Source of the DNA: a virus
Lineage: Duplodnaviria > Heunggongvirae > Uroviricota > Caudoviricetes
Virus record (IMG/VR): IMGVR_UViG_3300015207_000448
DNA length: 64,000 nucleotides
Strand: one strand, 5' to 3'
Position numbers and translations under genes: made by a program. The notes beneath the pieces are model-generated. The model ran no database searches. It had not been told where the DNA came from and saw only the letters and a list, made by a program, of their open reading frames with translations. Each line of letters opens with the position of its first letter. The first letter of the stretch is position 1. This document shows positions 5,619-59,460 of this stretch, piece after piece.

Positions 5619-6031
5619 TCGGAATCTGTGGCACCCTTGAAGCTGCTAAAGAGCATCTTCGTAGTGTTCGATATTACCCCTCTTATATGAGAAGCGTCGA
5701 GAGTTTGGATATTTCCGATGACGAAATGTCTGGTACCGGCTATGATGAGAGTGGGCATTTCACATACTCAATCAAAACAGCATAACATGAATGAGCGCCA
5801 ATACTTTGTGATTATGCCCAACGGACATCTCTTGTTCGTGGAAATCACCCCAGAACGTAAAAGCGTGATTGACGATGAATTTTCCGGAGACGAAGAAGAA
5901 TACCTCTATACGGTTCTATCTGAAGAATTTGACTTTTCAGTCAACGATGTTGACTGGTCAATTGTGCCGGATTCATGTATCACTTGCTTCGGCAGAAACC
6001 CTTCGATAACAAAACTATAAACATTATAACA

Positions 6032-6829
6032 ATGGAATTGAAAAACGAACTTAAAAAGTTTATCGTTGACCGTACCACCCGGTACAACGTAATGGCTAAG
6101 AGCCAGGAAGCCGCTGAACTTGCTGCGGCAGGAGGAGTGATTTTCGGCAATCTGTCTGCGGATGCCGACCAGTTCTCAGTTTACCCTGAGGGAACAGAGG
6201 GTCAAGACGGCCTCAATCTCACGTCCAAGGACAATTCAACGCTTGACAACATCAAAGCTGAGGTCAAGCGTACCGGTGAAACACAAATTCTCATTGCGAT
6301 AGTTGGTGGAGGCTTTCTCACGAGAGACGAATATGCACACGCCAATGGAACGGACTTTAAGGATGCCGTCATCGGTATCGCTGTCATCACTCCGCTTATT
6401 TCTTTCATCGTGGGGCTCACTGAATGGAAGGAGCGCTGGAGTGAAGATGACGAGCATGTCGTGACTGAATCTCACACCGAAGCTCAAGCCTTCCAGGTTG
6501 TTTCCGGTCTGGAGCATACCCGTCAACTTGTCGATTGGCAAGAAGATGAAGGCAATACTGCCGCAAAAATGTGCTGGAACTACAAGCATAAAGGGCTTCA
6601 GTGGTATCTCCCGTGCCTGCTGGAGCTCAATGCCATCTGTGCAAACAAAGAAGAAATCAATGTGCTTCTGAAACTCGTCGGCGGTACGCCGCTCAGTTTG
6701 GATGAATGTTATTGGTCGTCCACTGAGCACTCGGCTGGCTACTCGTGGTTCGTCTACTTTGGCAGTGGTCTTAGCTACTACGGCAGCAAGTGCGGCACTA
6801 ACGTGGTTCGCCCTGCTGTTGCCATATAA
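6032..6829 (+). CDS. DGR-type target protein 1 with a DUF1566/C-type-lectin-like C-terminal domain
   Basis: C-terminus ECYWSSTEHSAGYSWFVYFGSGLSYYGSKCGTNVVRPAVAI is a DUF1566 signature (W-LP ... YWSST ... VR-V); paralogue of 11922..12590 with identity concentrated at the 3' end. Confidence 0.7.
   Translation: MELKNELKKFIVDRTTRYNVMAKSQEAAELAAAGGVIFGNLSADADQFSVYPEGTEGQDGLNLTSKDNSTLDNIKAEVKRTGETQILIAIVGGGFLTRDEYAHANGTDFKDAVIGIAVITPLISFIVGLTEWKERWSEDDEHVVTESHTEAQAFQVVSGLEHTRQLVDWQEDEGNTAAKMCWNYKHKGLQWYLPCLLELNAICANKEEINVLLKLVGGTPLSLDECYWSSTEHSAGYSWFVYFGSGLSYYGSKCGTNVVRPAVAI
6710..6826 (+). repeat. Variable region VR1, 117 nt
   Basis: Nucleotide-identical to 12471..12587 except at 7 codons, where only positions 1 and 2 differ and position 3 is fixed (cac/ggc, ttc/cgc, ctt/ggt, tac/ggc x2, ggc/tac, aac/tac). 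This pattern indicates adenine-specific mutagenesis of AAC codons. Confidence 0.6.
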
Positions 6830-11579: not shown

Positions 11580-11847
11580 AGATTTTAATCGCTGGGAGTT
11601 CATTGAAAAGTGGCTTCCAAACTATTCATCCGATCAAGATGTGGCATGGTCAAACGACTTGTCAAAATATCTTGCCGGAGAATACGACTATCAAGACCCG
11701 TATGACAGAGACCGTATCAATGCAATAGCAGAAGTTTGTGCTACTGCTGAAGACGCCAAAATTGAGCTCGAAAGGGTTGACTGCGGATTGTTTTTGGAAG
11801 CACTGGAAGCATACCAAAGACAGAAAGAGAAAATTAACGAGTGTTAA
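11572..11847 (+). CDS. Small acidic protein
   Basis: ORF track. Confidence 0.3.
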   Translation: MNKDFNRWEFIEKWLPNYSSDQDVAWSNDLSKYLAGEYDYQDPYDRDRINAIAEVCATAEDAKIELERVDCGLFLEALEAYQRQKEKINEC

Positions 11848-11905
11848 AGTGTACAACTTTTCACACCTCTAATACAAAACAAATCTATTCGATAATAAAC
11901 AACCA
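11843..11905 (+). promoter_or_regulatory. Conserved promoter/leader motif, copy 2
   Basis: tgttaaagtgtacaacttttcacacc ... ctattcgataataaacaacc about 20 nt upstream of the target-2 start. Confidence 0.4.
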
Positions 11906-11921
11906 ATTAAATCAAAGACAA

Positions 11922-12590
11922 ATGTCACAGTTAAATGTACTTCAGGAGCTGAGGGCTTCACTTGCCTTCGCCAACCGCTTTGACATCGCCAAAGCAAAAG
12001 ATGCCTACGATTTTATCATAGGCGAAAACGAGGAACAGCCTACCCTAAATGTGAACGTAGCGCCGCTTTCAGATGGAATCTACTATGTTATCAACGACAA
12101 AACGCTCGTTCCGGTAGCTCACCTTGAAACCGTCAACAAAGCAAGAGTTATCGGCGTCGCAGTTAAGATGTCCGACAAGATTGCGACTGTTGCTCTTCAC
12201 GATGCAGCTGATGGAGAAGAAGTCGCGCTTACCACAACAGAGAATAACGGCTCGTCAGAGTTTTTCCGTCCCGACTTTTGGGATGCGATGTCTGACTGGA
12301 ATGGCGAGGCCAACACCAAGGATTACGGCGACGACCTCAATCCGGCAATCAACCTTCAGCCTGGACAGTACATCCCGTCGCTCGCTCAGCTTCATCTGAT
12401 TCTCCTTAACATCAAGGAGGTCAATGCTGCTCTTGAAGCAGTGGGCGGCACACCGCTTCGCAAAGAGTGGTATTGGTCGTCCACTGAGGGCTCGGCTGGC
12501 TACTCGTGGCGCGTCTACTTTGGCAGTGGTGGTAGCGGCGGCGGCAGCAAGTGCTACACTTACGTGGTTCGCCCTGCTGTTGCGATATAA
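11922..12590 (+). CDS. DGR-type target protein 2 with a DUF1566/C-type-lectin-like C-terminus
   Basis: ORF 11841..12590 (GTG start) with probable Met start MSQLNVLQEL; C-terminus EWYWSSTEGSAGYSWRVYFGSGGSGGGSKCYTYVVRPAVAI. Confidence 0.7.
   Translation: MSQLNVLQELRASLAFANRFDIAKAKDAYDFIIGENEEQPTLNVNVAPLSDGIYYVINDKTLVPVAHLETVNKARVIGVAVKMSDKIATVALHDAADGEEVALTTTENNGSSEFFRPDFWDAMSDWNGEANTKDYGDDLNPAINLQPGQYIPSLAQLHLILLNIKEVNAALEAVGGTPLRKEWYWSSTEGSAGYSWRVYFGSGGSGGGSKCYTYVVRPAVAI
12471..12587 (+). repeat. Variable region VR2, 117 nt
   Basis: See VR1; the region from the VR through the downstream hairpin (about 12458-12651) is about 90% identical to 6697-6890, whereas the upstream coding sequence has diverged synonymously. 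Confidence 0.6.
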
Positions 12591-12659: not shown

Positions 12660-12977
12660 ATGCCCTATAAGAGCGAGAAAATCAATATCGCCGGAACAAA
12701 ATACGATAGGCGTCGTAAACTCAGTCCCGATCAGGTCAAAGCAATCAAACTTCTCAAAGAAGAAGGATATAGTTATCGTCAACTCGCTGCCATGTTTAAT
12801 TGCAGTAAATGGACGATTCAAAACATAATCAATCCACAAATTAACAAACAACCAATCAAACGACCTACATCATATTGGACTGAGAAAAAGCGACAATATC
12901 GACAAAGAAAGGAAGCACTTTTCAAATCCGGAAAAATCAATGCGAAAAACAAAAGAAGTCGAGCCTATAAGAATTGA
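12660..12977 (+). CDS. Small, very basic helix-turn-helix protein lying between target 2 and RT1; possible DGR accessory or regulator
   Basis: SPDQVKAIKLLKEEGYSYRQLAAMFNCSKWTIQNII is an HTH motif; K/R-rich tails; it occupies the position where Avd usually sits, but no Avd-like features were recognised. Confidence 0.45.
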   Translation: MPYKSEKINIAGTKYDRRRKLSPDQVKAIKLLKEEGYSYRQLAAMFNCSKWTIQNIINPQINKQPIKRPTSYWTEKKRQYRQRKEALFKSGKINAKNKRSRAYKN

Positions 12978-13182
12978 AGATTTCATACAATCAGTATTAG
13001 CACTCAATGGTCTGAAACGCGGAAGAGATTTCAAAGTTTCCGGTAGGCAGTTATGGATTAAGAAAAATCCACTCCGAGGTAAACTGATTGTAATGTTGAA
13101 AAATACGTTCTCTGAGTATAGCTATTACTGGGAATCACCTCAAATTCTTAGATGGTTTTAACCCACAAAAACAGGAAATTAC

Positions 13183-14442
13183 GTGGACAAGATATTAGAA
13201 AAATTCTTCGAGCTTGAACGATGGGAATATGCCATTGACAAAGGCTTGGGAAAAGGAATTTCAAAAGCACAACTCTACCAGCTAACGAAGCCGGAAACAA
13301 GGGTTGCGATGTATGAGGCCATTCGAGATGGTAAGTACGAAATAGCACCACCTCACACTGCCAAAATACCCAAAGATAATGGCGAGTTCAGAACAGTTTA
13401 TATCAATGAACCGGCTGATCGAGTTTTATTGAGTATTGCCAATGATCTTCTGTTTGAATTGATGCCTGAGATGGTTCATCCGCAGTGTCAGTCATACCAG
13501 AAGGGAATTGGTTGTGGTAAGATTGTACAAGAAGTATCTCGAAAAATATGCGACACGAAGGGCGAAGTCATCGGTTGGAAGGCCGACTTTAGCAAGTATT
13601 TTGATAGTGTGCCGGTAAGGTTCATTGATGAAGCCTTTGACAAAGTTGAAGCGAAACATGGACATTCGGCACTGATTGATGTATTGCGAAAGTATTATCA
13701 TTCCGACTATTTCTTCACTCCTGAAGGTGAGCTGATGCAATCGTACCAATCATTGAAGCAAGGGTGCTCCGTCGCATCTTGGCTGGCTGATGTGGCCCTA
13801 TGCCACCTCGATGAACGGCTGTCTCAACTGGATGGCTACTATATTCGCTACTCTGATGATACGCTATTTGTCGGAGCTGATTACGAGAAAGCTATGGTGA
13901 TTATGGAAGATGAATTACATCAGATGGAAATGAAACTCAACCCCAAGAAAGTTGAGTATCTGACTCCTACGAAGTGGTTCAAATTTCTGGGGTTCTCAAT
14001 CAAGGGGGCTGCAATCTCACTCAGTTCAACCCGCATAAAGAAATTCCAAAAAGAGATTGAGAGGTTGACGATCAAAGCAAAGGATATTACGCTCCAAAAG
14101 GCTATCAATTCTGTAAATCGTTTTCTTTATAAAGGCTACGGTGAACATAGTTGGGCCACTCAAATATTACCTATTTGCAATGTCCACTCTGACATCCACG
14201 AATTGAATTGTTTTGTGATGGATTGTCTGAGAGCAGTAAAGACTGGTAAGAAGAAAATAGGCGGTCTTGGTTATGTGGTCACACAGGAGCAAGGCTGTAT
14301 TTCACGAGGCATTGGAAAGAACGTCAAGGCTAACCGTGAGAAAACAGCTAATATGATAAACCGATATTTGACGCTCTCTTGTATGCAAAATGCAATGCGT
14401 ACAAGCCGAGACGCTTATCGGACTTTGGTCGCTTCTCTCTAA
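13183..14442 (+). CDS. Reverse transcriptase RT1, of group II intron-like / DGR-type
   Basis: RT motifs present: PKDNGEFRTVYINEP, WKADFSKYFDSVP, LKQGCSVASWLADVAL, YIRYSDDTLFVG (YxDD), LNPKKVEY, FKFLGFSI; about 100 aa of C-terminal extension beyond the thumb. Confidence 0.85.
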   Translation: MDKILEKFFELERWEYAIDKGLGKGISKAQLYQLTKPETRVAMYEAIRDGKYEIAPPHTAKIPKDNGEFRTVYINEPADRVLLSIANDLLFELMPEMVHPQCQSYQKGIGCGKIVQEVSRKICDTKGEVIGWKADFSKYFDSVPVRFIDEAFDKVEAKHGHSALIDVLRKYYHSDYFFTPEGELMQSYQSLKQGCSVASWLADVALCHLDERLSQLDGYYIRYSDDTLFVGADYEKAMVIMEDELHQMEMKLNPKKVEYLTPTKWFKFLGFSIKGAAISLSSTRIKKFQKEIERLTIKAKDITLQKAINSVNRFLYKGYGEHSWATQILPICNVHSDIHELNCFVMDCLRAVKTGKKKIGGLGYVVTQEQGCISRGIGKNVKANREKTANMINRYLTLSCMQNAMRTSRDAYRTLVASL

Positions 14443-14444
14443 CT

Positions 14445-15800
14445 AAGTATGTGGAGGCAAAGAATGATTGAGCAATCATTTAGTCATTGCGGCAGAATCC
14501 ACCGAGGAGAACGCGCTGATACCGCGTGCTCCTCCCGTTACGCCCGCCGCCAGACATCAAACAGATATAGCAACATACAATTCAATCTGACTTTGCCAAA
14601 AACCAAGTGTATGGATATATTCAACGGCTGCACACATTTAAGTGTCAGCAGGCAAATCGGGAACCGTTCTGTAAACTTGAGATTCCGAAACGGAATCCAA
14701 GTTCCTACAGAGCGGGACACCGATAGCCTGCTGCCTATATCGAAACTATATAGCAATACACCAAGTGCAGTGATGAATACTAAACTGAGTATGCAGACGA
14801 AGTTGAATGGCGTACCGTTTCAGGACATGATCATATATCACCTGAGTCTTGACCAGGTTAGCACCGTGGTCAGACTCAAGTTCCACGATCATGTCTACAT
14901 CAAACTGATAAAGATACATACAAAGCGCATGACAACTTCAAATTTCGCCGGGCGTGCGGCTCACGATTGTAAATCTGCAATCTTCAATGTTAGACGAGTT
15001 GTATTCGAGCTGTTCACGGACACACTGGGTCCAGTTTCCAGCTCGAAACACTCGTCAACATATCGAGAAAATAAAGATACACGTAACAGGAACGCAATCG
15101 TACAATTGATAACAGCGTCGAGTATGAGGCAGGTGCTTAATCTTGAAAATTTCAATGGATCAGACATAACCAGAAGTTCGTCGATTCCATCCAATCGACG
15201 AACTTCTGGCTGTACTGATTTCATATCAAGCAGATTACAGAAACATACAAACTCAAGTGAAAGTGCCTCCGGTATGCGCCGGGCTAAAATCCAAGCAGAC
15301 GAGTTTAGAGATACAGTTATCAATAAGCCAGGTACGGGACATTCCGACCGGCCAACTAAGCCGGTTCTCCGTGTCCCGTGCCTGGCTTCTGAATACTGTA
15401 TTCATCAAGCCTATAAAGCACCGCATTGTGTCTGACAGGATTGAAAATAGCGCAAATGGGCCATCGGGATCAGAACATTTATCGTAGCTGGTTTCAACGT
15501 AAGGTCGTCATCTCCCAGTAGATAACTGGATATGACGTCCTTCGCTCACCAGCTTCTGAATCGAAGAGATATAGCAAGCGCCGCTCTGATGAGATTGTCC
15601 GTAAAAGTGTAACGTAACATTTATATGCAAGAGGCCAAACTTCAATAACCCGCCGAGTCGAAGCCCTCCTGGATACAGGTAGGACCGACTACACAACGTT
15701 TCGTGGTCCATACCTGTATCCAGGAGGCCGCTGAACGGCGGGTTACATCTAAATCAATAGAGCAATACGTCATTGGCTTTGAGCATCTAATTTTTTAATC
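14445..15800 (+). other. 1.35-kb hairpin-dense noncoding region 3' of RT1; candidate RT-associated structured RNA or regulatory region
   Basis: Perfect or near-perfect long stems, e.g. ccagaagttcgtcgatt/aatcgacgaacttctgg (17 bp) and cctcctggatacaggta/tacctgtatccaggagg (17 bp) nested inside cccgccg/cggcggg, ggagaacgcgc/gcgtgctcctcc, gagtcttgacc/ggtcagactc. The only ORF here (14449..15435) is low-complexity and has no paralogue. Confidence 0.4.
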
Positions 15801-15805
15801 AACAA

Positions 15806-16264
15806 ATGAAAAATATCTATAAAGAAACACTGGCTAAAGTTGCTGAAGGAGCACGATTCTCAGTCAATTTTGAGAAACGAAACCTAAAAGTTAATGGCAA
15901 GTATGTCATTAAGGAGGGTAAATATGAAGGTGAACTGGGTGTCAGTCCACTTCCCGTAGTTGAAACACTGAAAGACATCGAAAGACTCTATCACCGCTAC
16001 CGTCACAGCATACCGTCCGAAAGGTCAGATGCAAGACGGAAAACATACTTTCAGGCAATTGCAGAGCATGAGCTGTCAGACGATGACATGCTTTATGGTG
16101 AGCGGAGAGATAACGCTCAGATTGCTTTGGAACTGTACGTCCTCTGCTCAATTCTCAATGGCTCTCTTGTATGGGAAGACTTCGCTCAGGGCAAATGGTT
16201 CTGGCAGTCTTCCAACGAAAAGGGCTTAATCATCTTGAAACAATGGATAAATAACAACAAATAA
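15806..16264 (+). CDS. Conserved hypothetical protein; paralogue of 53245..53706 (minus strand)
   Basis: Shared KYVIK-G-YEGELG, SLPSERSD-RRK-YF-A--EH-LSD-DMLYGE, KWFWQS blocks. Confidence 0.5.
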   Translation: MKNIYKETLAKVAEGARFSVNFEKRNLKVNGKYVIKEGKYEGELGVSPLPVVETLKDIERLYHRYRHSIPSERSDARRKTYFQAIAEHELSDDDMLYGERRDNAQIALELYVLCSILNGSLVWEDFAQGKWFWQSSNEKGLIILKQWINNNK

Positions 16265-16277
16265 GAAACGAATAACA

Positions 16278-17384
16278 ATGGCAAAGAAAAACCCCAACCC
16301 CAGTACAAAAATCGTATGCCCCGTGTGCGGTACAGAGTTTGCAATCCCCGAAAAAACTCACGTTGCTGTCGGTATCGTCGTAGGTGCAGACAGCGGTCTT
16401 GGCACCATCTACCCGGCAACGACAGGAGCCACCCAAACTCCGGCACCCAGTGCTCAATCTCAGAAGAAAGCGACTGAGAAGATTGAGGCTTTGCACATGG
16501 CCGGGGTTAATGTTGACAACCTCTTCAGTATGAAGAGCGCGTCCGGTCAGGAAATCATCGCCCGTATGGAAAACGGAAACCTCTCCGTTGTTCCCGACAA
16601 TGACCCGATTTTCGCAGTTATCATGGGACGTGGTACCGTGCCTAACCGCCGACTCTTCCGTCGCTGGGTGATGGCTCAGGTCTTCCACATGCTCAACTAC
16701 AAGTCCTATCGCGGAAACAAAACAGGTTTCGTTGCTGCACTCGAAGCCAAAGGTTACAAGTATCAGTGGAAGATGGTTCTTGAGGAAATGCGAGTACAGG
16801 CTAAGCTCGCCGCTGAAGACCCTGAGAACTTCGCACTCCGTAACCGCTGGTTCAACGATGGCCGCATCATGCAAATGGGCGTGGACTATCTGGAGCAGCT
16901 TGTGGCTCATATCAACAAGCTGAAGGTTCGTCACTGCAAAGGCGTGCCCTATGTTAAACTGGGCGGCAGAAACGTGTTTACTGCTGACATCCAGACTAAG
17001 GTCATTGACCCTATCGTGAAAGCGATGGCGAAAATAGGTGAGGCTGACACCCCTCAGAAACTTTACTACGCAGTCAATGCTGCTGTAAGATTCATTCAGC
17101 AATGGTGGTTCACCAACGACGCTTGTATGTCTCAGGCTTTCAAAGACGCATACAAGGGAGCTGGTGCATACTTCACTATGCAGAACCTTATTCTCTTCCA
17201 CGGGGCCAGTTTCAAAAATGGCTGCATCAAGCTTGGCCAGAAGAAATCTCTGGCTATGCTTGAGAACAAGGCTCACGAATATGCAACTTCACAGGAAGGC
17301 TGGCGTCTGTTCGGTGTGATGAAGAAACTCATCGCTGATTCTGGTATCAATATCGGAAAGAAGATGGAAGAATGGCGAAAATAA
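16278..17384 (+). CDS. Zn-ribbon-containing hypothetical protein; paralogue of 52182..53270 (minus strand)
   Basis: N-terminal CPVCGTEF; shared blocks AGVNV-NLFS, VVPD-DPIFA, RRLFRRWVMAQVFHM, FKDAYKGAGAYFT--NLILFH. Confidence 0.5.
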   Translation: MAKKNPNPSTKIVCPVCGTEFAIPEKTHVAVGIVVGADSGLGTIYPATTGATQTPAPSAQSQKKATEKIEALHMAGVNVDNLFSMKSASGQEIIARMENGNLSVVPDNDPIFAVIMGRGTVPNRRLFRRWVMAQVFHMLNYKSYRGNKTGFVAALEAKGYKYQWKMVLEEMRVQAKLAAEDPENFALRNRWFNDGRIMQMGVDYLEQLVAHINKLKVRHCKGVPYVKLGGRNVFTADIQTKVIDPIVKAMAKIGEADTPQKLYYAVNAAVRFIQQWWFTNDACMSQAFKDAYKGAGAYFTMQNLILFHGASFKNGCIKLGQKKSLAMLENKAHEYATSQEGWRLFGVMKKLIADSGINIGKKMEEWRK

Positions 17385-20270: not shown

Positions 20271-21479
20271 ATGAAAGTATTTCACAACATAATCGGTCAG
20301 GAGGTGAAGATTTTCGGGGATATACTCGAAGACGAAGCTCTGGCTCAAATACAGCGATTGGCTGATTTCAAGCCATACCAGAACTCGCATATCCGAATTA
20401 TGCCGGATGTCCACGCCGGTAAGGGTTGTACTATCGGTACGACTCTTGTATTGGATGACGCGGTTACACCCAACCTTGTAGGCGTTGACATCGGTTGCGG
20501 CATGTTCGTGGTTCCTCTTGGAAATGCAGAGATTGACCTTCCTTTGTTGGATCAAATCGTCAACGAAAAGATTCCCTCTGGATGCCACATTCACCCCAGT
20601 CCAATTGCACAATTCCCTATGTTAGAAAACTTAAAGTGCATCAAAGCAATTGACACTTATAAGGCATATTGTGCGTTAGGTTCTCTTGGTGGCGGTAATC
20701 ATTTCATTGAGCTGAATGAAGATGCAGAGGGTGGCAAGTTTCTTGTAATCCACTCAGGCAGCCGAAATCTCGGAGTGCGTGTATGTCAGTTCTATCAGAA
20801 GATTGCAGAAGAGCTGTGTCGCCAAGGATATGTGGACAGAAACGAAATTATTCAGCGATTAAAGGCTGAAGGTCGATCGCAGGAAATCCAGACAGAGTTA
20901 CAAAAGCTCAAGTCTAAAAATGAGCCAGTTCCCGATGGCTTGGCATATATCACTGGAGAAGTCAAGGATGACTATCTGCATGATATGTATATCGCTCAGG
21001 ATTATGCAAGGTTGAATCGCGAAACAATCGCCTACTTGATTTTGCAAGAACTGGGATTGAACTCTTGTATTGCCGCCAATGGGTTCCATACAGTTCATAA
21101 CTATATTGATACCAACGATAATGGTACAATATTACGCAAGGGTGCTGTCCGAGCCAACATGGGTGAAATGCTCATTATTCCAATGAATATGCGAGACGGT
21201 TCACTAATCTGTATCGGTAAGGGTAATCCAGACTGGAATTATTCCGCACCTCACGGAGCCGGTCGCTTGATGTCTCGTAAGAAGGCCAAGGAATCACTAT
21301 CTCTTGAAGAATTTGCAGATAATATGAAGGATGTATATTCGTCATCAGTCTGCGCTTTTACTCTTGATGAGGCTCCGATGGCATATAAGCCGATGCAAAG
21401 CATTGTGGATGCCATTCAAGAGACCGTTGATATTCAAAATATTATTCGTCCAATCTATAATTTCAAAGCTAAGGAATGA
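20271..21479 (+). CDS. rtcB: RtcB-family RNA 3'-phosphate ligase
   Basis: MPDVHAGKGCTIGT, GGGNHF and APHGAGRLMSR motifs; 402 aa. Confidence 0.85.
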   Translation: MKVFHNIIGQEVKIFGDILEDEALAQIQRLADFKPYQNSHIRIMPDVHAGKGCTIGTTLVLDDAVTPNLVGVDIGCGMFVVPLGNAEIDLPLLDQIVNEKIPSGCHIHPSPIAQFPMLENLKCIKAIDTYKAYCALGSLGGGNHFIELNEDAEGGKFLVIHSGSRNLGVRVCQFYQKIAEELCRQGYVDRNEIIQRLKAEGRSQEIQTELQKLKSKNEPVPDGLAYITGEVKDDYLHDMYIAQDYARLNRETIAYLILQELGLNSCIAANGFHTVHNYIDTNDNGTILRKGAVRANMGEMLIIPMNMRDGSLICIGKGNPDWNYSAPHGAGRLMSRKKAKESLSLEEFADNMKDVYSSSVCAFTLDEAPMAYKPMQSIVDAIQETVDIQNIIRPIYNFKAKE

Positions 21480-27210: not shown

Positions 27211-27446
27211 GAAATTTCAACCCTAAGGCACTTTGCAACAAGTGTCAAATCAAGAAAGCCTCAGGTCTTCACTCTTGTCCTTTCGAGCAGAAACACATGT
27301 GTCCTGACTATCAGGCTTATGTCGCAGATAATGCGTTACAGTTTGAGGACTCTGCGCTCCAAATTCCAGTAGAGTCGTTGCTGACCGCATTGAGATTTCA
27401 CGGTTACTCTGGTGAGCTTCGCAAATCAGAGATCGTAGTAATCTAA
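27207..27446 (+). CDS. Small Cys-rich protein ending in GYSGELRK; paralogue of 49966..50229 (minus strand)
   Basis: CNKC ... CPF ... C cysteines; C-terminal GY-GELR motif shared with the upstream gene. Confidence 0.45.
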   Translation: MRNFNPKALCNKCQIKKASGLHSCPFEQKHMCPDYQAYVADNALQFEDSALQIPVESLLTALRFHGYSGELRKSEIVVI

Positions 27447-27519
27447 TAGTAGAATATTCAGTTGAATACATAGAATCTCCCTAATTTTTATTAACTTTGC
27501 AGCAGCTTTATTGCTAAGG

Positions 27520-34848: not shown

Positions 34849-36111
34849 ATGATTACAATCAACTATCAGATGTTCGGGACCAAAGGGTTCCAACTAAGAT
34901 TGAGGCTCTATCAGGATGGCGAGACAAAGTTTATCAACGTCACCAAAATGCTGAAAGGAGCCATCCAAAAGAAACACTGGAATCAGAAGAAGCAGCTCTT
35001 TATCCCAAGCTGCCCCTTCAGTGATGAGAACAATGCCATGCTGGTTCAGTTCCGGCAGAGGTACGATGAAATGGCAATCAACTGGACTGGCAGCGTGTTT
35101 GGTATGATAGCTGCTATGGAAACGGCCACAGAACCCTCTCAAAAGGCCCTGACGGTCTCAGAATTTATCCAGTATGTAGTTGACCAGCTCAACAAAAACA
35201 AGCACGCAGACGGCTCTGGAAAGGGCAGTTTTGAGAACTACCTGAAATGTGACAAAAGACTTCAGGAGTTCTGCAAGGCAAAAAAGATTAAATACTCAAA
35301 ACTGTTGATTACGGAGCTTAATGCAACTTTCGTGAATAACGTGTTTGAATGGGTCGAGCGCGCGCGTAAAGGCACAGGAATGTGCTATGTCTCAAAGATA
35401 CTCCATTCTTTGATTATGAAAGCTGATAAGGAGGGGTATCTGAAAGCTGAGGATTTCAAGAAATGCAACTGGTTCAAGAAACCAAGCTCCAGCTCCCAGA
35501 AGTTCCACACACTGACTGAAGAGCAATGTAAGAAGTTTACCACTCTGGATTTGTCATCAATCTCCAAGTCACCTCTGAATGAGCTGTACCGGGATTTCTG
35601 CCTCTTCATTCTCTACACCGGCCAGTCTGCTTGTGACGCGATCGCTCTCCGATATTCGGACATCAAGAAAATAGGCGGGATCAGTCACTTTGTGTTCAAC
35701 CGAAGAAAGATTGCTGAGAAGCAGGCGGTGCCTTGCTCTGTTCCAATCAATACAGAGCTTGACCGTATAATGCTCCGTTGGAGAAGGTTGGCAAAGGATG
35801 GGTACATTTTCCCCATCCGAAATAAGGAGAAGTTAAAAACTCAGACCACCAATAATGGGGATATAAAACACTTTATAGGGAATTTGAACAACTGGCTCAA
35901 AAAAGTCGGCAAGGCGCTGGGTTGTTCGTTTCCGCTGCATACCTACACTTTCAGGCACACAGCGATAACACATTATATCAGTAAGGGAGTGCCGGTCATA
36001 TATGTGTCGAATATGATGGGCACCAGTATAGAGAACTGTGAGAAGATCTACTACAACAATCAAGGTGATACTGCCAGCCGTAACAAAGTATTGGCAGCTA
36101 TGAAGTTCTAA
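34849..36111 (+). CDS. int: Tyrosine site-specific recombinase (integrase)
   Basis: C-terminal catalytic box HTYTFRHTAITHYISKGVPVIYVSNMMGTS; 420 aa; preceded by about 550 bp of noncoding DNA carrying the palindrome gtggtggcctggtggcaccac. Confidence 0.8.
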   Translation: MITINYQMFGTKGFQLRLRLYQDGETKFINVTKMLKGAIQKKHWNQKKQLFIPSCPFSDENNAMLVQFRQRYDEMAINWTGSVFGMIAAMETATEPSQKALTVSEFIQYVVDQLNKNKHADGSGKGSFENYLKCDKRLQEFCKAKKIKYSKLLITELNATFVNNVFEWVERARKGTGMCYVSKILHSLIMKADKEGYLKAEDFKKCNWFKKPSSSSQKFHTLTEEQCKKFTTLDLSSISKSPLNELYRDFCLFILYTGQSACDAIALRYSDIKKIGGISHFVFNRRKIAEKQAVPCSVPINTELDRIMLRWRRLAKDGYIFPIRNKEKLKTQTTNNGDIKHFIGNLNNWLKKVGKALGCSFPLHTYTFRHTAITHYISKGVPVIYVSNMMGTSIENCEKIYYNNQGDTASRNKVLAAMKF

Positions 36112-52181: not shown

Positions 52182-53270
52182 TTATTTTCGCCATTCAGCT
52201 CGCATGGCCTCAATATTGATACCATTGACGACCAGAAAATCCTTCAGGATACCGAAGAGCTTATATCCCTCTAAATCTTTTTGAGATGCAAGCTCATAAA
52301 GATATTCCCGTGACATTTTTTGACTCATCTTTGGAAATCCACAATCGTGGAAGAGAATGAGGTTCTTCAGAGTGAAGAAGGCGCCGGCACCTTTATAGGC
52401 ATCTTTGAAAGCTCTGGACTGTTCCATATCAAAGAACAGACAAGTTTCTTTGACTGCCTTATAGAAATTGGTTGTTGCACGATATAGTGCGGCCGGTTGA
52501 CGGGTATTCCTGATTGAGCGGAGCAGCTTTTCAAGAGGCTCATACACCTTAGTCGGCAGGTCTTTAATGAAGATATTGGTGCCATCCAAGCGAACATAAG
52601 GAACACCCTTGCACGATCTGATACGGAGCTTTGTCACAATGTTTCTGACCAACTTAATGTAGTCGGTGGCCATCTGAACGACAACGCCACGATTGAACCA
52701 GCGATTGCGCTCTGCGAAGTTTTCCGGGTCAGTGACATTGAGCCTTGCCTGAACACGCAGTTCTTCAACAACCATTTCCCACTGATACTTGTAACCCTTG
52801 CGACGGAGGGCGGCAGTGAAGCCGATGGGCTGGCCGGTCTTGTAATCGGTTTCGGTCATCATGTGAAAGACCTGAGCCATAACCCAGCGACGGAAGAGGC
52901 GGCGGTCAGGAATCGTTTTGCTGGCACGAATTGCAGCGAAGATAGGATCGTCATCGGGAACTACAGCAAATTGACCGTCAGTGAGGCGACCGACTTCGTA
53001 GCTGCCGTCAGTGCCACGAATAGAGAAGAGGTTGGCCACGTTGACTCCGGCATTACGGAGAGCTTCGATTTTGGCCTCAGCTTCATTGAGCTTGTTGGCC
53101 GGAACGGGGATTTCTACGGCGATTGATGTTGGTACGCAGTGAACTGGCATTACAACATTCACTTCAGCTGCTTCTACTTCGAGATTGGCGCCACACTTGG
53201 GGCATTTTACGCTTACTTTCTTCATATTGGTTTTTATTTTGATGTTATTTGTTTTCTGATTTGGGTTCAA
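52182..53270 (-). CDS. Zn-ribbon hypothetical protein; paralogue of 16278..17384
   Basis: N-terminal CPKCGANL; shared blocks listed for 16278..17384. Confidence 0.5.
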   Translation of the reverse strand: MNPNQKTNNIKIKTNMKKVSVKCPKCGANLEVEAAEVNVVMPVHCVPTSIAVEIPVPANKLNEAEAKIEALRNAGVNVANLFSIRGTDGSYEVGRLTDGQFAVVPDDDPIFAAIRASKTIPDRRLFRRWVMAQVFHMMTETDYKTGQPIGFTAALRRKGYKYQWEMVVEELRVQARLNVTDPENFAERNRWFNRGVVVQMATDYIKLVRNIVTKLRIRSCKGVPYVRLDGTNIFIKDLPTKVYEPLEKLLRSIRNTRQPAALYRATTNFYKAVKETCLFFDMEQSRAFKDAYKGAGAFFTLKNLILFHDCGFPKMSQKMSREYLYELASQKDLEGYKLFGILKDFLVVNGINIEAMRAEWRK

Positions 53271-53706
53271 TCCATTCTTTCAGGATGATGAGTTCTTTTA
53301 CGGTAGGACTTTGCCAGAACCATTTATCCTTAGCAAATTCATACCATTTGAGAGAGCCGTTAAATATCATTATCAGGATATGGAGTTCCAACTTGATTTG
53401 AGCAACTTCTCGTGGTTCGCCATAGAGCATATCCTCATCTGAAAGCTGATGCTCAGACAGAGCATTGAAGTATTTTTTACGCTTATGATCACTTCGTTCA
53501 GATGGTAGGCTATGCTGATAGCGAATGAACAGCTGAGTAATAATAGTGAGCGGATCGTCAAATACCGGAAGCCCTAACTCACCCTCATACTCACCTTGTT
53601 TGATGACATATTTACCATCAATTTTGAGCGTGCGTTTCTGAAAGTCTATATGGAATTTTGACCCACACTTGACTTTATTAACACATTCATTATAAATGTT
53701 TTCCAT
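53245..53706 (-). CDS. Conserved hypothetical protein; paralogue of 15806..16264
   Basis: See 15806..16264. Confidence 0.5.
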   Translation of the reverse strand: MENIYNECVNKVKCGSKFHIDFQKRTLKIDGKYVIKQGEYEGELGLPVFDDPLTIITQLFIRYQHSLPSERSDHKRKKYFNALSEHQLSDEDMLYGEPREVAQIKLELHILIMIFNGSLKWYEFAKDKWFWQSPTVKELIILKEWIEPKSENK

Positions 53707-54553
53707 TTCTATTTGAATTAAAAAATTATAATCTCACTGACTTGGCACATTACTTTATCGTATTGATTAAAGAGCTGGTGACAAGGTTCCGAATCGAACA
53801 AGCCAGGTGGCTAACCTGGCTGTCGATTCGAGTCCCTTGGTTAAACCAGCTCTATTGAACTTGCCAGTCTTGATTAAATCCTCTGTGCTGAGGTTTATCA
53901 GTTCTCAAAGCATTGATGCGTAACTCTATTCGGTTGATGGAATCCAGATAAGGACTCAGGTAGAACCGGCTGAAACATCCCAGGCAAGGATGTGAAAGCC
54001 GGTGGAACCTGAGTCCTATTCAGGTCTGGATGACTAAACAGTTGCTTTCTTGAACTGAGGTGCCGCATTACATTGGCTACTGAAGATGATTTGGTATATC
54101 GCTTTAAGAGGTTGATGTTTGGGCTTTACGGCTGCTGATGGAGGGTTGATAGAGCCTCCTAACAGCAGCTTAATGAAGCCAAAACTAAAATTATCATCTC
54201 TCAGATTGCTGCCATATACTTGGCTTGATGTATCTGTCATGTCACTGATATGTTTCTTTACTATCTTGATATTCTTCAGAAGTTACAGATGGACCAGGAT
54301 GAGTCATCTACGATAGGAGATGAATCTACTGGTCCATCTGCTATTAATTCTGAATAATTGAATGATTGACCCTTCAGATAAGACCGCATATTCGGTAATT
54401 GGTAGTCAGACAATATCGTGTGTGGCTATAAGGATTTGATGTCAGAAGGATCTGAGACTGTTGGCCAAAGGCGATAGCATGGCCCACAGTTCGATGATCC
54501 TTCTCTGAAAGGATTGCCGTTCTACCATTCATTGCACACTCAATCTATATCGG
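53707..54553 (-). other. 0.85-kb hairpin-dense noncoding region 3' of RT2, the positional counterpart of 14445..15800
   Basis: An 83-nt quasi-palindrome agagctggt ... accagctct at about 53771-53853; ggactcaggt ... acctgagtcc with nested accggc/gccggt; gctgctg ... cagcagc; gatggaccag ... ctggtccatc; no ORF of 60 aa or more. Confidence 0.4.
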
Positions 54554-55828
54554 TTATCCGTACTGATGAAGAGAGGAAACCAGCGTTCTGTAAACATCCT
54601 TACTGGTCAAGAGTGCATTTTGCATACACCCTATCGTAAAAAAGCCGGAGAACATCTTGTCTGTCTTTATACGGTTAGCTTTCACATTCCGTCCTATGCC
54701 TCGCTGTATGCAGCCATCGGATTGATTGGCAATATATCCCAGTCCTCCGATTTTAGTCTTGCCAGTCACGACAGCCCTCAAACAATCCATCACAAAGAGT
54801 GTGAGAGTTTGAATGTCTTTCTTCACGTTGATGACCGGCAACACCTGAGTGGCCCAGCTATACTCACCATTTCCGCAATAGAGATAATGATTTATATCAT
54901 TCGTGGCTTTGATGAGGCTTTTCTTTTTGGCTTTGATAGTGCGGGATTCAATCTCTTTCTGGAAGGCTTTTATTCGGGTTGAGCTGAGAGAAATGGAGGC
55001 TCCTTTGATTGAAAACCCAAGGAATTTGAACCACCGAGTATGAGTAAGAAACTCTATCTTTTTGGGATTGAGTTTCATTTCTCGCTTCGTGACCTCTTCA
55101 GTCATTATCTCCATTGCTTTCATATAGTCCGGCCCGACAAATAAGGCATCATCAGAATATCGGACATACTCGCCATTCAGTTGGCTCAGTCTTTCATCCA
55201 GGGTAAACATTACTACATTTGCCAACCAAGAAGCGACCGAACAGCCTTGTTTGAGTGACTGATAGGCTTTCTGGAGTTTGCCGTCAGTATCAAAATACCA
55301 GTCCGAATGATAATACTTTCGGAGAACATCTATGATAGCGGAATGGCCGTGTTTTGCCTCGACTTTATCAAAGGCTTCGTCAATAAATCTGATAGGTACA
55401 GAATCGAAATACTTACTGAAATCAGACTTCCACCCAATCACTTCGCCCTTGGTTTGGCAAATTCTCTTGGAGATCTCTTTCACAATCTTGCCACAACCGA
55501 TACCTTTCTGATAAGATTGACAAGTGGGATGAATCATCTCAGGCATCAGCTCAAATAAAAGGTCATTAGCGATACTGAGAAATATGCGGTCAATCGGCTC
55601 ATTGACATAGACTGTCCGGAACTCTCCGTTATCCTTGGGGATAAGAGCCGTGTGGGGCGGTGCTATCTCATATCGGCCGTCTCGTATAGCAGCGTACATA
55701 GCAGCTCTGGTATCAGGTTTTGTAAGCTGATAGAGATGAGCCTTATTGATGTGCTTCCCGACACCTTTTTCAATGGCATATCGCCATCTCTCAGTATCGA
55801 AAAACATTTCTAATATCTTATCATTCAT
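54554..55828 (-). CDS. Reverse transcriptase RT2; paralogue of RT1 (about 75% aa identity by eye)
   Basis: Same motif set, including YVRYSDDALFVG and FKFLGFSI. Confidence 0.85.
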   Translation of the reverse strand: MNDKILEMFFDTERWRYAIEKGVGKHINKAHLYQLTKPDTRAAMYAAIRDGRYEIAPPHTALIPKDNGEFRTVYVNEPIDRIFLSIANDLLFELMPEMIHPTCQSYQKGIGCGKIVKEISKRICQTKGEVIGWKSDFSKYFDSVPIRFIDEAFDKVEAKHGHSAIIDVLRKYYHSDWYFDTDGKLQKAYQSLKQGCSVASWLANVVMFTLDERLSQLNGEYVRYSDDALFVGPDYMKAMEIMTEEVTKREMKLNPKKIEFLTHTRWFKFLGFSIKGASISLSSTRIKAFQKEIESRTIKAKKKSLIKATNDINHYLYCGNGEYSWATQVLPVINVKKDIQTLTLFVMDCLRAVVTGKTKIGGLGYIANQSDGCIQRGIGRNVKANRIKTDKMFSGFFTIGCMQNALLTSKDVYRTLVSSLHQYG

Positions 55829-56400: not shown

Positions 56401-57696
56401 TTATGCGATTTTTGATATAATTTTTGAAGTATTAGACTTAATCAATGATACTATTCTGTCAAAGTGTTCTGGAACCTGGTTGTATTTGCCACGGCATTGG
56501 AGGACCGAGAAGTCCTCTAAAGAAAATTCTATAGTTGCGATTGACACACCATTAACCAGGGCATGAAAAATAAGCACATTGTCGTCAGAATAATACCTAT
56601 TAGTGAAGACACAGTGGTGCATATATTCACCCTCTTCTACAAATTCTTTTACCGACTGAAGAGGTTTGACCACAATTTCCTTATCGACAAATTCCAGATC
56701 TAAAAATATTGATTTGGCTTTCTTATATCGAGCTTCATCAACTTTGTGATTAACCTCATAGCGTTGTAAAGGTGTCATTTGTCTCTCGCGCTCTCTTCGT
56801 CTATCTGCTTCATCCATCTTAGCTCGCTTTTTAGCAATCCATAAATCATGAGCCTCTTTAAGATTGTCAGGACAGATGAATTTTGGATTTCTCAAATCTT
56901 TCCCACAGTATTCAAGAGCGTCGAGCATATCATACCAAGTTGAAGCATCGGTAATCTTATAATTGTGCCGGAAAGCGACCTTAGCGGAGGGCCAATATTT
57001 CTCAAACTCATACTTTTTAGCCAATGAGAAAGCTACCATTTTGTATTGCCTTAATTTCCATGCCGTCTCAGTTTTATTGCAAGTGAGTAAGCGTTGGAAC
57101 AAAGTATATGGGGAACAGTTATGAAAATCACCGTTATATCCGTTTCTTCGGATTTCTGGAATCACTGAAGATTGCCCGATAACTTTGTAAGGCGTGACAT
57201 AGTGGCCATAGTTTTCTGTTCGGATTTCCATTTCGCTGTCATAGTTCCATATATCGCAATAACTGCACATCCAATGTCGAGCACGACCAACTATCACTTC
57301 TTTGGCATCTGGAGTAAGCCAGCGTTGAAAAGCCTCACTAATCCAGTATGTAGCCTTCTCGCCTCTTCTCAGATTTGTCTGCATAAAGAACATTCTAACA
57401 ACCTGACAACCTCCACGCTTGGTTACGATTGCGAAATAAGCTCTATCACAAAAATTCCACTTGCGAGTTTTGTCAACATCCAGCTTTGCGGAGCAGTGAG
57501 GACATACAACCTTAGTAGCCTCATCACCTTTCCAAGAGTGACCACAATCCAGACACACATATTCTTTCTTAGAATTGTACTTGGCAATATGCGGAGCCAC
57601 TTTCCTGACAGCTTCCTTATATTGATGTTCGTTCAAAGGAGAGAGTGTTTTGGATAACTCCAAAATTTTTCTTTGAAATTTGTTTCTGGGTTTCAT
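56401..57696 (-). CDS. PcfJ-like protein
   Basis: N-terminal zinc ribbon CLDCG ... CPHC and the C-terminal MHHCV motif that I recall for the PcfJ family. Confidence 0.5.
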   Translation of the reverse strand: MKPRNKFQRKILELSKTLSPLNEHQYKEAVRKVAPHIAKYNSKKEYVCLDCGHSWKGDEATKVVCPHCSAKLDVDKTRKWNFCDRAYFAIVTKRGGCQVVRMFFMQTNLRRGEKATYWISEAFQRWLTPDAKEVIVGRARHWMCSYCDIWNYDSEMEIRTENYGHYVTPYKVIGQSSVIPEIRRNGYNGDFHNCSPYTLFQRLLTCNKTETAWKLRQYKMVAFSLAKKYEFEKYWPSAKVAFRHNYKITDASTWYDMLDALEYCGKDLRNPKFICPDNLKEAHDLWIAKKRAKMDEADRRRERERQMTPLQRYEVNHKVDEARYKKAKSIFLDLEFVDKEIVVKPLQSVKEFVEEGEYMHHCVFTNRYYSDDNVLIFHALVNGVSIATIEFSLEDFSVLQCRGKYNQVPEHFDRIVSLIKSNTSKIISKIA

Positions 57697-58746: not shown

Positions 58747-59460
58747 TTAATGAAATGCTGCCACAGCGCGGACGTAGAGGCTGCTCGTGGCCTTAGTGCC
58801 CCAGCCGTTGAGGCTGCCGCCGTACAGGGACAAGCCCCAAGCGTACGTCGCCGAGCCCTCAGTGCTGGTCCAATACCAGCCATCCTTAATGCGGCTACCG
58901 CCGCTAAGTTCGATGGCGGCATTGATTGAACGCTTGTTGAGATAGATGAGATAGAGTTCAGCAACTGAAGGGATCCACTCGTCATCCTCCAGCTCTATGC
59001 CGGTGCCGATAGACTTGATATGCTCAGTGTTTGACTGGCCGTTCCAATCAGCAACAGCATCATCATATTCAGTGATGTAACCGTCATAACCGCCGGGGTC
59101 TTTCTGGTTGGTAAGGGGCTGTTCCGGATAATCCTCCAGATTGACTGCGAGAGCATGGCGACCCATCACTACGCCGATACGCTTTACCGTCTTTGTCGGA
59201 GCATTGCGCTTCTTGTAGTCGAACTTTTCAACTGTGTTATCCTCGTAGATGTAGTACACTCCATCATTCAGAATGGCTTGATGAGAGCCTTCAGTCTGCT
59301 GAATGTCGATTTTGATTTGCTCAACCTCCTTTATCGGAGATTTGATGAAGTCATACACAGCCTGTGCTTCTTCACCGAAGTCACTGAAGAGAGCAAGTTT
59401 CAGCTTCTCATCCATCGGAAGAGAAGCGTAGATGGTTTTTGCGATTTCGTCTGAGATCAT
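58747..59460 (-). CDS. DGR-type target protein 3 with a DUF1566/C-type-lectin-like C-terminus
   Basis: EWIPSVAELYLIYLNK ... DGWYWTSTEGSATYAWGLSLYGGSLNGWGTKATSSLYVRAVAAFH. Confidence 0.7.
   Translation of the reverse strand: MISDEIAKTIYASLPMDEKLKLALFSDFGEEAQAVYDFIKSPIKEVEQIKIDIQQTEGSHQAILNDGVYYIYEDNTVEKFDYKKRNAPTKTVKRIGVVMGRHALAVNLEDYPEQPLTNQKDPGGYDGYITEYDDAVADWNGQSNTEHIKSIGTGIELEDDEWIPSVAELYLIYLNKRSINAAIELSGGSRIKDGWYWTSTEGSATYAWGLSLYGGSLNGWGTKATSSLYVRAVAAFH
58750..58875 (-). repeat. Candidate variable region VR3
   Basis: GC-rich (about 62%) C-terminal segment homologous to VR1 and VR2 at the protein level; boundaries inferred. Confidence 0.45.

Follow-up and report, generated by a model that had tools for sequence, protein, structure and literature searches.

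Predicted arrays of pseudoknotted noncoding modules downstream of two UG27 reverse transcriptases in a 64 kb stretch of phage DNA

UG27 is defined as a class 2 UG/Abi reverse transcriptase (RT) frequently encoded by predicted gut phages of Bacteroidetes and Firmicutes; it was found in 1447 dereplicated phage genomes without enrichment in defence islands (Mestre et al. 2022, NAR 50:6084, PMC9226505). The enzyme is associated with protein clusters 346 and 337, and a structured noncoding RNA (ncRNA), described as putative, conserved and 'with three long stem-loops', was reported in the intergenic region between the RT and cluster 346; UG2 and UG28 are listed in the same survey with structured ncRNAs of their own, placed upstream (PMC9226505). 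The UG27 system, including its structured ncRNA, has been known since that publication. A preprint (10.64898/2026.09.22.753630, 24 September 2026), judged by its indexed term counts alone (UG27, 74; 'UG27 ncRNA', 11; 'ncRNA array', 10; hairpin, 33; pseudoknot, 12; cDNA, 24), appears already to describe arrays of UG27 ncRNAs. Here, we analyse IMG/VR record IMGVR_UViG_3300015207_000448, a 64,000-nucleotide stretch of Caudoviricetes DNA (hereafter the window) in which two related, distinct accessory arms lie tail to tail (1–36111, + strand, and 36151–64000, − strand). Each arm carries an RT gene followed by a long noncoding gap.

From its sequence, each arm is predicted to hold a UG27 RT module made up of the RT, a co-oriented tandem array of structured noncoding modules, and the proteins RTas346 and RTas337. 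The UG27 identity and the array architecture are very likely correct, and UG27 RT modules with ncRNA arrays that work independently of any diversity-generating retroelement (DGR) are probably the best overall explanation of the locus. With the same RT, cluster 346 and 337 proteins, gene order, intergenic ncRNA and gut Bacteroidales phage context, the locus is a typical member of the group described by Mestre et al. (PMC9226505); in contrast to the one ncRNA with three stem-loops described there, we find 1–9 tandem P1/P1b/P2 modules with a covarying pseudoknot. The two RT genes, both intact and retaining the YSDD active site, are

13183–14442, + strand, RT-L, UG27-type reverse transcriptase of 419 residues with a YSDD active site (PADLOC RT_UG27, Pfam RVT_1)
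54554–55828, − strand, RT-R, second UG27-type reverse transcriptase of 424 residues (Pfam RVT_1, identity to RT-L)

Both RTs match the PADLOC RT_UG27 profile over its whole length, RT-L with E = 8.3e-229 (757.6 bits), its residues 1–419 aligning with profile positions 2–420 of 420, and the runner-up PADLOC profile, UG26, reaches E = 2.5e-37. RVT_1 is the sole Pfam domain of the 419-residue protein (E = 9e-21; 3e-21 for RT-R), without an added fused domain, as UG27 membership demands. The two RTs share 74% protein identity. The nearest solved structure is that of the group II intron RT GsI-IIC (E = 2.6e-10), which is also about 420 residues long and is similar through the thumb/X region; the alignment covers RT-L up to residue 317 of 419, so that a C-terminal stretch of about 100 residues lies outside it. 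The initial annotation of this DNA had drawn attention to such an extension past the thumb and to an RT motif reading QGCSVASWLAD, and both are present. Both window RTs are thus full-length, free-standing UG27 enzymes (class 2 UG/Abi), of the same class as DRT2 and DRT9.

Matches to the other described RT groups lie far below family level. The Drt9 profile reaches E = 9.1e-29 over residues 42–298 only and the Drt2 profile E = 1.8e-12, with 41.5 bits against a cut-off of 390 for the NCBIfam Drt2 model. The best retron profiles give E = 1.5e-9 (PADLOC) and 4.5e-10 (NCBIfam, 39 bits against a cut-off of 235), so that RT-L is not of retron type, and 98.7 bits against a cut-off of 300 for TIGR04416 show that it is not a group II maturase. 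No group II intron RNA domains were detected by Rfam in region 12800–16300, even at E <= 10.

The gap after RT-L spans 1363 nt (14443–15805) and that after RT-R 847 nt (53707–54553), and neither contains a conserved open reading frame (ORF), in agreement with the 1.35 and 0.85 kb of noncoding DNA first noted there. Both gaps are filled by inverted repeats with perfect arms of 9–17 nt, as had also been observed, together with imperfect arms of 24–37 nt. Positions 14806–15805, the final 1000 nt of the left gap, have a minimum free energy of −370 kcal/mol compared with −257 ± 5.5 kcal/mol for dinucleotide shuffles, the reference for all fold z scores given here (z = −20.7; z = −8.8 for the right gap). 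Few 300-nt windows of the 64 kb are as stable as those in the gaps, and windows within 15151–15750 fold about 4 standard deviations below the mean of the whole window. In a BLAST comparison of the window with itself, DNA similarity between the arms ends at the RT stop codon and restarts at the next gene. The proposal that the two gaps keep their position and not their sequence stands for the arm-to-arm alignment and needs qualifying for a motif of about 45 nt, which recurs in every module of the arrays.

The initial annotation had proposed GOLLD, ROOL, HEARO, DGR and retron models for comparison, and no Rfam family matches the gaps: only tRNAs pass the gathering thresholds in the whole window, and at E <= 10 the best matches in 12800–16300 are spurious miRNA models far under threshold, with no intron RNA or ribozyme model among them. 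A scan for σ70 promoters and terminators gave chance-level results, the σ70 model being ill-suited to Bacteroidales.

Module boundaries were taken from span-limited folding; an earlier motif regular expression was too rigid, giving chance-level matches only, and was therefore replaced by the folding-based segmentation. The left array begins 4 nt before the end of the RT-L gene and ends 20 nt before the next ATG. The arrays and their modules are

14438–15785, + strand, left ncRNA array of 8 tandem modules (folding segmentation, motif positions, pseudoknot partners, fold z score)
14438–14597, + strand, left module 1: 5′ pseudoknot strand GTATG 14447–14451, motif ATCAAACAGATATAG 14556–14570, 3′ pseudoknot strand CATAC 14574–14578, P1 GGCAAAG/CTTTGCC
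14603–14778, + strand, left module 2: 5′ strand GTGTA 14607–14611, motif 14739–14753, 3′ strand TACAC 14757–14761
14785–14939, + strand, left module 3: 5′ strand GTATG 14789–14793, motif 14899–14913, 3′ strand CATAC 14917–14921
14947–15101, + strand, left module 4: 5′ strand GCGTG 14952–14956, motif 15062–15076, 3′ strand CACGT 15080–15084, with one G–U pair
15116–15268, + strand, left module 5: 5′ strand GTATG 15122–15126, perfect 17 bp stem 15170–15186/15193–15209, motif 15225–15240, 3′ strand CATAC 15244–15248
15269–15442, + strand, left module 6: 5′ strand ATGCG 15274–15278, motif 15404–15418, 3′ strand CGCAT 15422–15426
15443–15602, + strand, left module 7, the weakest: motif 15560–15574, with only a 4 bp GCGC/GCGC pseudoknot drawable (read from the sequence)
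15605–15785, + strand, left module 8: 5′ strand ACGTA 15612–15616, hairpin with 30-nt arms 15665–15727, motif 15747–15762, 3′ strand TACGT 15766–15770
53734–54548, − strand, right ncRNA array of 5 modules (folding, pseudoknot partners, fold z score; module 3 re-read by eye)
about 54548–54400, − strand, right module 1 (this and the next four by span-limited folding, with approximate coordinates), pseudoknot GTGTG/CACAC
54396–54231, − strand, right module 2, pseudoknot ATATG/CATAT
54224–54080, − strand, right module 3, pseudoknot GTATA/TATAC
54077–53899, − strand, right module 4, pseudoknot ATGCG/CGCAT
53897–53734, − strand, right module 5, pseudoknot GCACA/TGTGC

The modules are about 165 nt long (about 155–180 nt in the left array) and are spaced by about 155–185 nt in both arrays. 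One plan is shared by 72 non-redundant modules from the window, Bacteroides phage BS-TP1 and other IMG/VR loci. From 5′ to 3′, it comprises a mini-hairpin, P1, an internal loop, P1b, AUUYAA, P2, a conserved single strand, the pseudoknot strand, P1b′ and P1′. In the mini-hairpin, about 4 bp close a loop of 6 nt (AGCACA, for example). In the consensus, P1 has 6–8 bp and P1b 4–6 bp, separated by a small internal loop rich in purines (5′ strand RAGG, 3′ strand (A)UGA), and P2 is a long, lineage-variable hairpin of 53–103 nt with a mean of 29 bp. The conserved single strand 3′ of P2 reads YAUCRR-N5-UAAAG-NN-A, and the 5 nt that follow it pair with the loop of the mini-hairpin to form the pseudoknot. 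Matches to a hidden Markov model of the 3′ motif are confined to the arrays, both in the 64 kb window and in the whole 111.7 kb BS-TP1 genome.

Strong covariation, which the initial annotation had made the test of whether the gaps are mere intergenic spacers, was found in the pseudoknot, in P1/P1b and in an orthologous module by custom pairing statistics and structure-pair counts. A perfect 5/5 Watson–Crick pseudoknot is present in 198 of 246 modules (80%), compared with 9% for non-cognate combinations. The pseudoknot core occurs as 29 different 5-mers, 16 of which have an exactly complementary loop in at least one module, and the partners covary both within arrays and between lineages (GCACA/UGUGC, GUAUG/CAUAC, GUGUA/UACAC, AUGCG/CGCAU, ACGUA/UACGU, GUACA/UGUAC, ACGCA/UGCGU and GCACG/CGUGC). 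The duplex energy of P1/P1b is −17.2 kcal/mol for cognate and −10.2 kcal/mol for non-cognate strands (p = 7e-30). For one orthologous module followed through 11 lineages, 91% of cells are paired under the full model including the pseudoknot, compared with 33–45% when the partners are slid; both partners have changed in ten pairs, and in the pseudoknot pairing is complete (100%) and includes an A–U/G–C switch. Five-module arrays of six lineages can be aligned at 58–85% identity and show compensatory changes in P2, which indicates that the hairpins evolve by substitution under structural constraint and not by replacement. In view of this covariation, the region is not a mere spacer.

The genes that follow the arrays belong to the two families associated with UG27. 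Cluster 346 and cluster 337 proteins are encoded directly 3′ of the RT and gap in both arms, confirming that each gap lies immediately 5′ of the same conserved gene pair:

15806–16264, + strand, RTas346 family protein of 152 residues, UG27-associated (PADLOC RTas346, E = 7.4e-68)
16278–17384, + strand, RTas337 family protein of 368 residues with an N-terminal CPxC element kept across homologues (PADLOC RTas337, E = 3.8e-136)
53245–53706, − strand, RTas346 paralogue of 153 residues, 60% identical to the left copy (arm-to-arm protein comparison)
52182–53270, − strand, RTas337 paralogue of 362 residues, 46% identical to the left copy (arm-to-arm protein comparison)

The same arrangement is found in phage BS-TP1 (PQ571274, 111.7 kb), which infects Bacteroides salyersiae, in the order DUF1566 target gene, small ORFs, UG27 RT gp79, unannotated gap of 1349 nt and homologues of the downstream genes. 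The BS-TP1 RT (L001:8995–10257, PQ571274 79351–80613) is annotated in GenBank as 'tail protein', and the 1349-nt array after it (PQ571274 80614–81962) carries no annotation. All loci that hold both the RT and the 152-residue gene have the gap, namely 72 of 81 loci (80 IMG/VR contigs and BS-TP1) and 20 of 30 loci from GTDB species genomes (Bacteroidales); the remaining loci end before the 152-residue gene. Among complete loci, the gap measures 276–1494 nt, corresponding to 1–9 modules. In the public assembly collection, 318 blocks encode the exact RT-L protein, an RT 99% identical to it is encoded on a 143.6 kb contig of Muribaculaceae Isolate-002, and prophage copies of UG27 are present in Alistipes, Phocaeicola and Bacteroides chromosomes. 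In the INPHARED phage collection, no similar array was found and only the RT part of BS-TP1 was matched. The window phage is a temperate phage of Bacteroidales, probably of Muribaculaceae. UG27 is among the most abundant RTs of gut viromes, and an array of pseudoknotted modules, variable in length, models its 'three stem-loop ncRNA' better, providing a precise search model and mutational targets (the pseudoknot, P1 and the UAAAG core); BS-TP1 together with B. salyersiae BG8 offers a cultured system for direct functional tests.

The initial annotation had left three options for the gaps, of which a DRT- or retron-like ncRNA used by a free-standing RT gains support from the full-length UG27 assignment, while a DGR RNA falls and a single-stranded DNA promoter or leader element is disfavoured by the pseudoknotted modular architecture. 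DRT2 is reported to reverse-transcribe one part of its pseudoknotted ncRNA, the template region, and DRT10 to produce tandem-repeat DNA from its ncRNA. UG27 resembles DRT2 (UG2) and DRT9 (UG28) in having a small class 2 UG/Abi RT without a fused domain and a structured, pseudoknotted ncRNA adjoining the gene; it differs in being phage-borne and not enriched in defence islands, whereas DRT2, DRT9 and DRT10 are host defence systems with a single-copy ncRNA. Retron msr–msd elements are similar in their terminal stem joining the ends of the unit, their long variable hairpin and the nearby RT, features shared by the UG27 module of about 165 nt; the UG27 modules, however, lie downstream and in tandem, and their long hairpin is followed on its 3′ side by a conserved single-stranded core and a pseudoknot. 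A branching G was not identified in the UG27 modules, whose internal order differs from that of msr–msd.

By analogy with DRT2, DRT9 and DRT10, the array would be transcribed together with the RT, and each module would act as an RT-binding scaffold, part of which might serve as the template for cDNA. The template could be the single strand that P2 and the pseudoknot clamp from either end, or else P2, copied as a retron msd is. The conserved single strand, lying between the P2 helix and the pseudoknot, is arranged like a template that has a boundary helix on one side and a pseudoknot on the other. RTas346 and RTas337 would then be cofactors or effectors in a role that benefits the phage, such as anti-defence, exclusion or addiction. 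On these analogies, we regard the chances that the modules are RT scaffolds or templates yielding cDNA as about even. A more specific and doubtful version would make the modules self-contained, telomerase- or DRT-like template units, with P2 as boundary or payload and the pseudoknot-clamped AUCRR-N5-UAAAG as docking or template site. If this were true, one transcript would give rise to 1–9 hairpin cDNA species, a 'library' resembling multicopy single-stranded DNA, and these cDNAs, with RTas346 and RTas337, could neutralize host defences or exclude rival phages; such a library would fit the observation, described below, that folding of the complementary strand is no weaker than that of the RNA.

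Several points weigh against a role of the modules as templates or scaffolds of the RT. The UG27 literature consulted reports neither expression nor processing nor cDNA for UG27. The ncRNAs of DRT2 and DRT9 are single-copy and upstream of the RT, whereas that of UG27 is a downstream array. RTas346 and RTas337 have no recognizable fold, and the accessory proteins therefore give no mechanistic hint. G–U pairs in P2 number 85 in the sense and 113 in the antisense orientation, antisense P2 folds slightly better (−45.3 compared with −41.2 kcal/mol for sense), and imperfect pseudoknots are rescued by G–U in 22 cases and by A–C in 15. The wobble statistics thus do not single out the sense strand, which is odd for a purely RNA-level structure and leaves room for a role of the complementary strand, as cDNA or as DNA. 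Finally, in a natural (or assembly) variant, L101 (Logan SRR10090126), position 15599 is joined to 19306, so that the RT and modules 1–7 are kept, module 8, RTas346, RTas337 and three more ORFs are missing and the gene for the RNA ligase RtcB is near the array.

It also seems unlikely, although less easily set aside than the explanations that follow, that the modules are structured RNAs that act without reverse transcription and are merely linked to the RT, for example as decoy or sponge RNAs, as RNase III substrates or as a cis leader for RTas346 and RTas337. The hairpins, long and nearly perfect, should make good double-stranded RNA substrates, the array lies directly 5′ of the conserved gene pair, about 20 nt from the ATG, and the absence of cDNA from the UG27 reports consulted agrees with this explanation. 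Exact matches of the hairpins elsewhere in the window or in BS-TP1 reach 14–16 nt at most, within the range of shuffled controls; the hairpins are therefore not antisense to phage genes, and by the same token they are not obvious templates for anything encoded in these genomes. The RT and the array, on the other hand, co-occur in every complete locus examined, the conserved single-stranded core that the pseudoknot clamps in each module looks like a template or scaffold domain, and the UG2 and UG28 RTs, which are related, are reported to use a neighbouring ncRNA. A leader would have no need of 1–9 repeated modules.

Still less probable are hairpins that function at the DNA level, as cruciforms, single-strand initiation signals or promoters, origin-like repeats or recombination sites. 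Such elements would account for stems that are almost all Watson–Crick, for an antisense strand whose fold is no less stable than that of the sense strand and for A–C 'rescues' of the pseudoknot nearly as frequent as those by G–U. Loop-to-strand covariation in the pseudoknot and the conserved asymmetric internal loops nevertheless point to a folded single strand and not to duplex DNA, the array is always oriented like the RT operon, in either arm and in every relative, and the complete BS-TP1 genome has no copy of the motif outside the array.

The initial annotation had linked the RTs with a DGR and had considered the gaps a possible divergent DGR template RNA or spacer. In our judgement this explanation is already refuted, even though variable regions (VRs) lie close to the RT, one of them 600 nt upstream of it:

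6710–6822, VR at the C-terminus of a Lcl_C/DUF1566-like ORF (5975–6829)
12471–12583, VR at the C-terminus of a Lcl_C/DUF1566-like ORF (11841–12590)
58834–59061, weaker relative of these VRs in a Lcl_C/DUF1566-like ORF (58747–59460)

The RT thus resembles that of a DGR in its occurrence in a phage with C-type-lectin-like, VR-bearing target genes. As had been stated, the window contains no template repeat (TR): a self-BLAST with word size 9 gives VR–VR matches only. Two scans of IMG/VR with exact patterns derived from the VRs returned 0 and 2 uninformative matches, and the TR was located by way of the DGR RT of BS-TP1. The tail module of this phage contains a canonical DGR distinct from the UG27 locus and also described by the authors of BS-TP1 (PMC12694917), consisting of RT gp25, the four-helix-bundle Avd-like protein gp26 and the 2187-residue target gp27. 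Its TR (27399–27510) matches the VR of gp27 and, at 90%, a remote VR in gp76, which adjoins the UG27 RT. Similarly, the 119 kb contig IMGVR_UViG_3300045988_132205 encodes both a UG27 RT 97% identical to RT-L (in L006) and, about 50 kb away, a DGR RT with its TR (L099:3848–3959). The two window VRs differ from this TR by 18 and 21 mismatches, all at TR adenines, with none of the 78 C/G/T positions changed.

Because their differences from the TR of a relative are confined to adenines, the window VRs are served by a conventional DGR outside the 64 kb. They are predicted to be remote targets about 50 kb from their own DGR, whose RT, Avd and TR lie beyond the window, as seen in the relatives, and the UG27 modules appear from the same comparison to be independent of it. 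The RTs in the window, whose best profile is UG27, are not DGR RTs by this evidence, since the matching TR stands beside a different, Avd-linked RT; with that premise gone, and with no VR similarity found in the array, the divergent DGR RNA falls as well. A conventional TR elsewhere and an absence of covariation had together been expected to reduce the gaps to spacers: the TR was found and removes the DGR reading, and the covariation described above keeps the gaps from being mere spacers. An RT that adjoins DGR targets thus need not be a DGR RT, and the reach of a DGR can extend to targets at a distance of about 50 kb.

There is next to no chance that the left gap encodes a protein: the ORF concerned,

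14449–15435, + strand, mechanical ORF of 328 residues (987 nt) over modules 1–6, not a gene (no Pfam match, not conserved)

is long enough to be improbable by chance and is annotated by gene callers, but it has no Pfam family match, is interrupted in L006 (94% identical DNA), has no comparable counterpart in the right arm, BS-TP1 or any other lineage compared, and its frame passes straight through paired stems, and the left gap is non-coding because the ORF is broken in so close a relative and absent from the other lineages. In public assemblies the array is routinely miscalled as this 328-residue protein, which masks it from protein-centred annotation.

Other features of the window concern its layout and neighbouring genes. 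The arms share 27 paralogue pairs with 24–74% amino-acid identity, in partly rearranged order, and a tyrosine integrase gene (34849–36111) lies exactly at the arm junction. The left array matches contigs L005 and L006 and the right array a different contig, L007, and the exact RT-L protein is otherwise found on single-arm contigs of 102–116 kb; adjacent inverted prophages and a chimeric assembly would both fit the two-arm layout. The gene for RtcB (20271–21479, Pfam E = 6.7e-62) is 4.5 kb downstream of the left array and has a homologue, gp87, in BS-TP1; that RtcB might process or circularize the array RNA is pure speculation. The same applies to a ribozyme idea based on CUGAUGAG-like strings in some modules and on the proximity of RtcB, as no Rfam ribozyme model matches. 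Upstream of RT-R is a gene for a PcfJ-like protein (56401–57696, Pfam E = 3e-35), and the corresponding site of the left arm showed no counterpart. Across the 64 kb, 300-nt segments fold most stably at 1–450 and 1351–1650 (−126 to −135 kcal/mol), in a GC-richer stretch where no Rfam or Pfam match was found; direct repeats GTGGTCGCCCAYAAWTT occur there at 133 and 269, with inverted repeats across 133–307. The left arm also carries six tRNA genes between 31479 and 33504 (Leu-CAA, Ala-UGC, Met-CAU, Cys-GCA, Asn-GUU and Gln-UUG).

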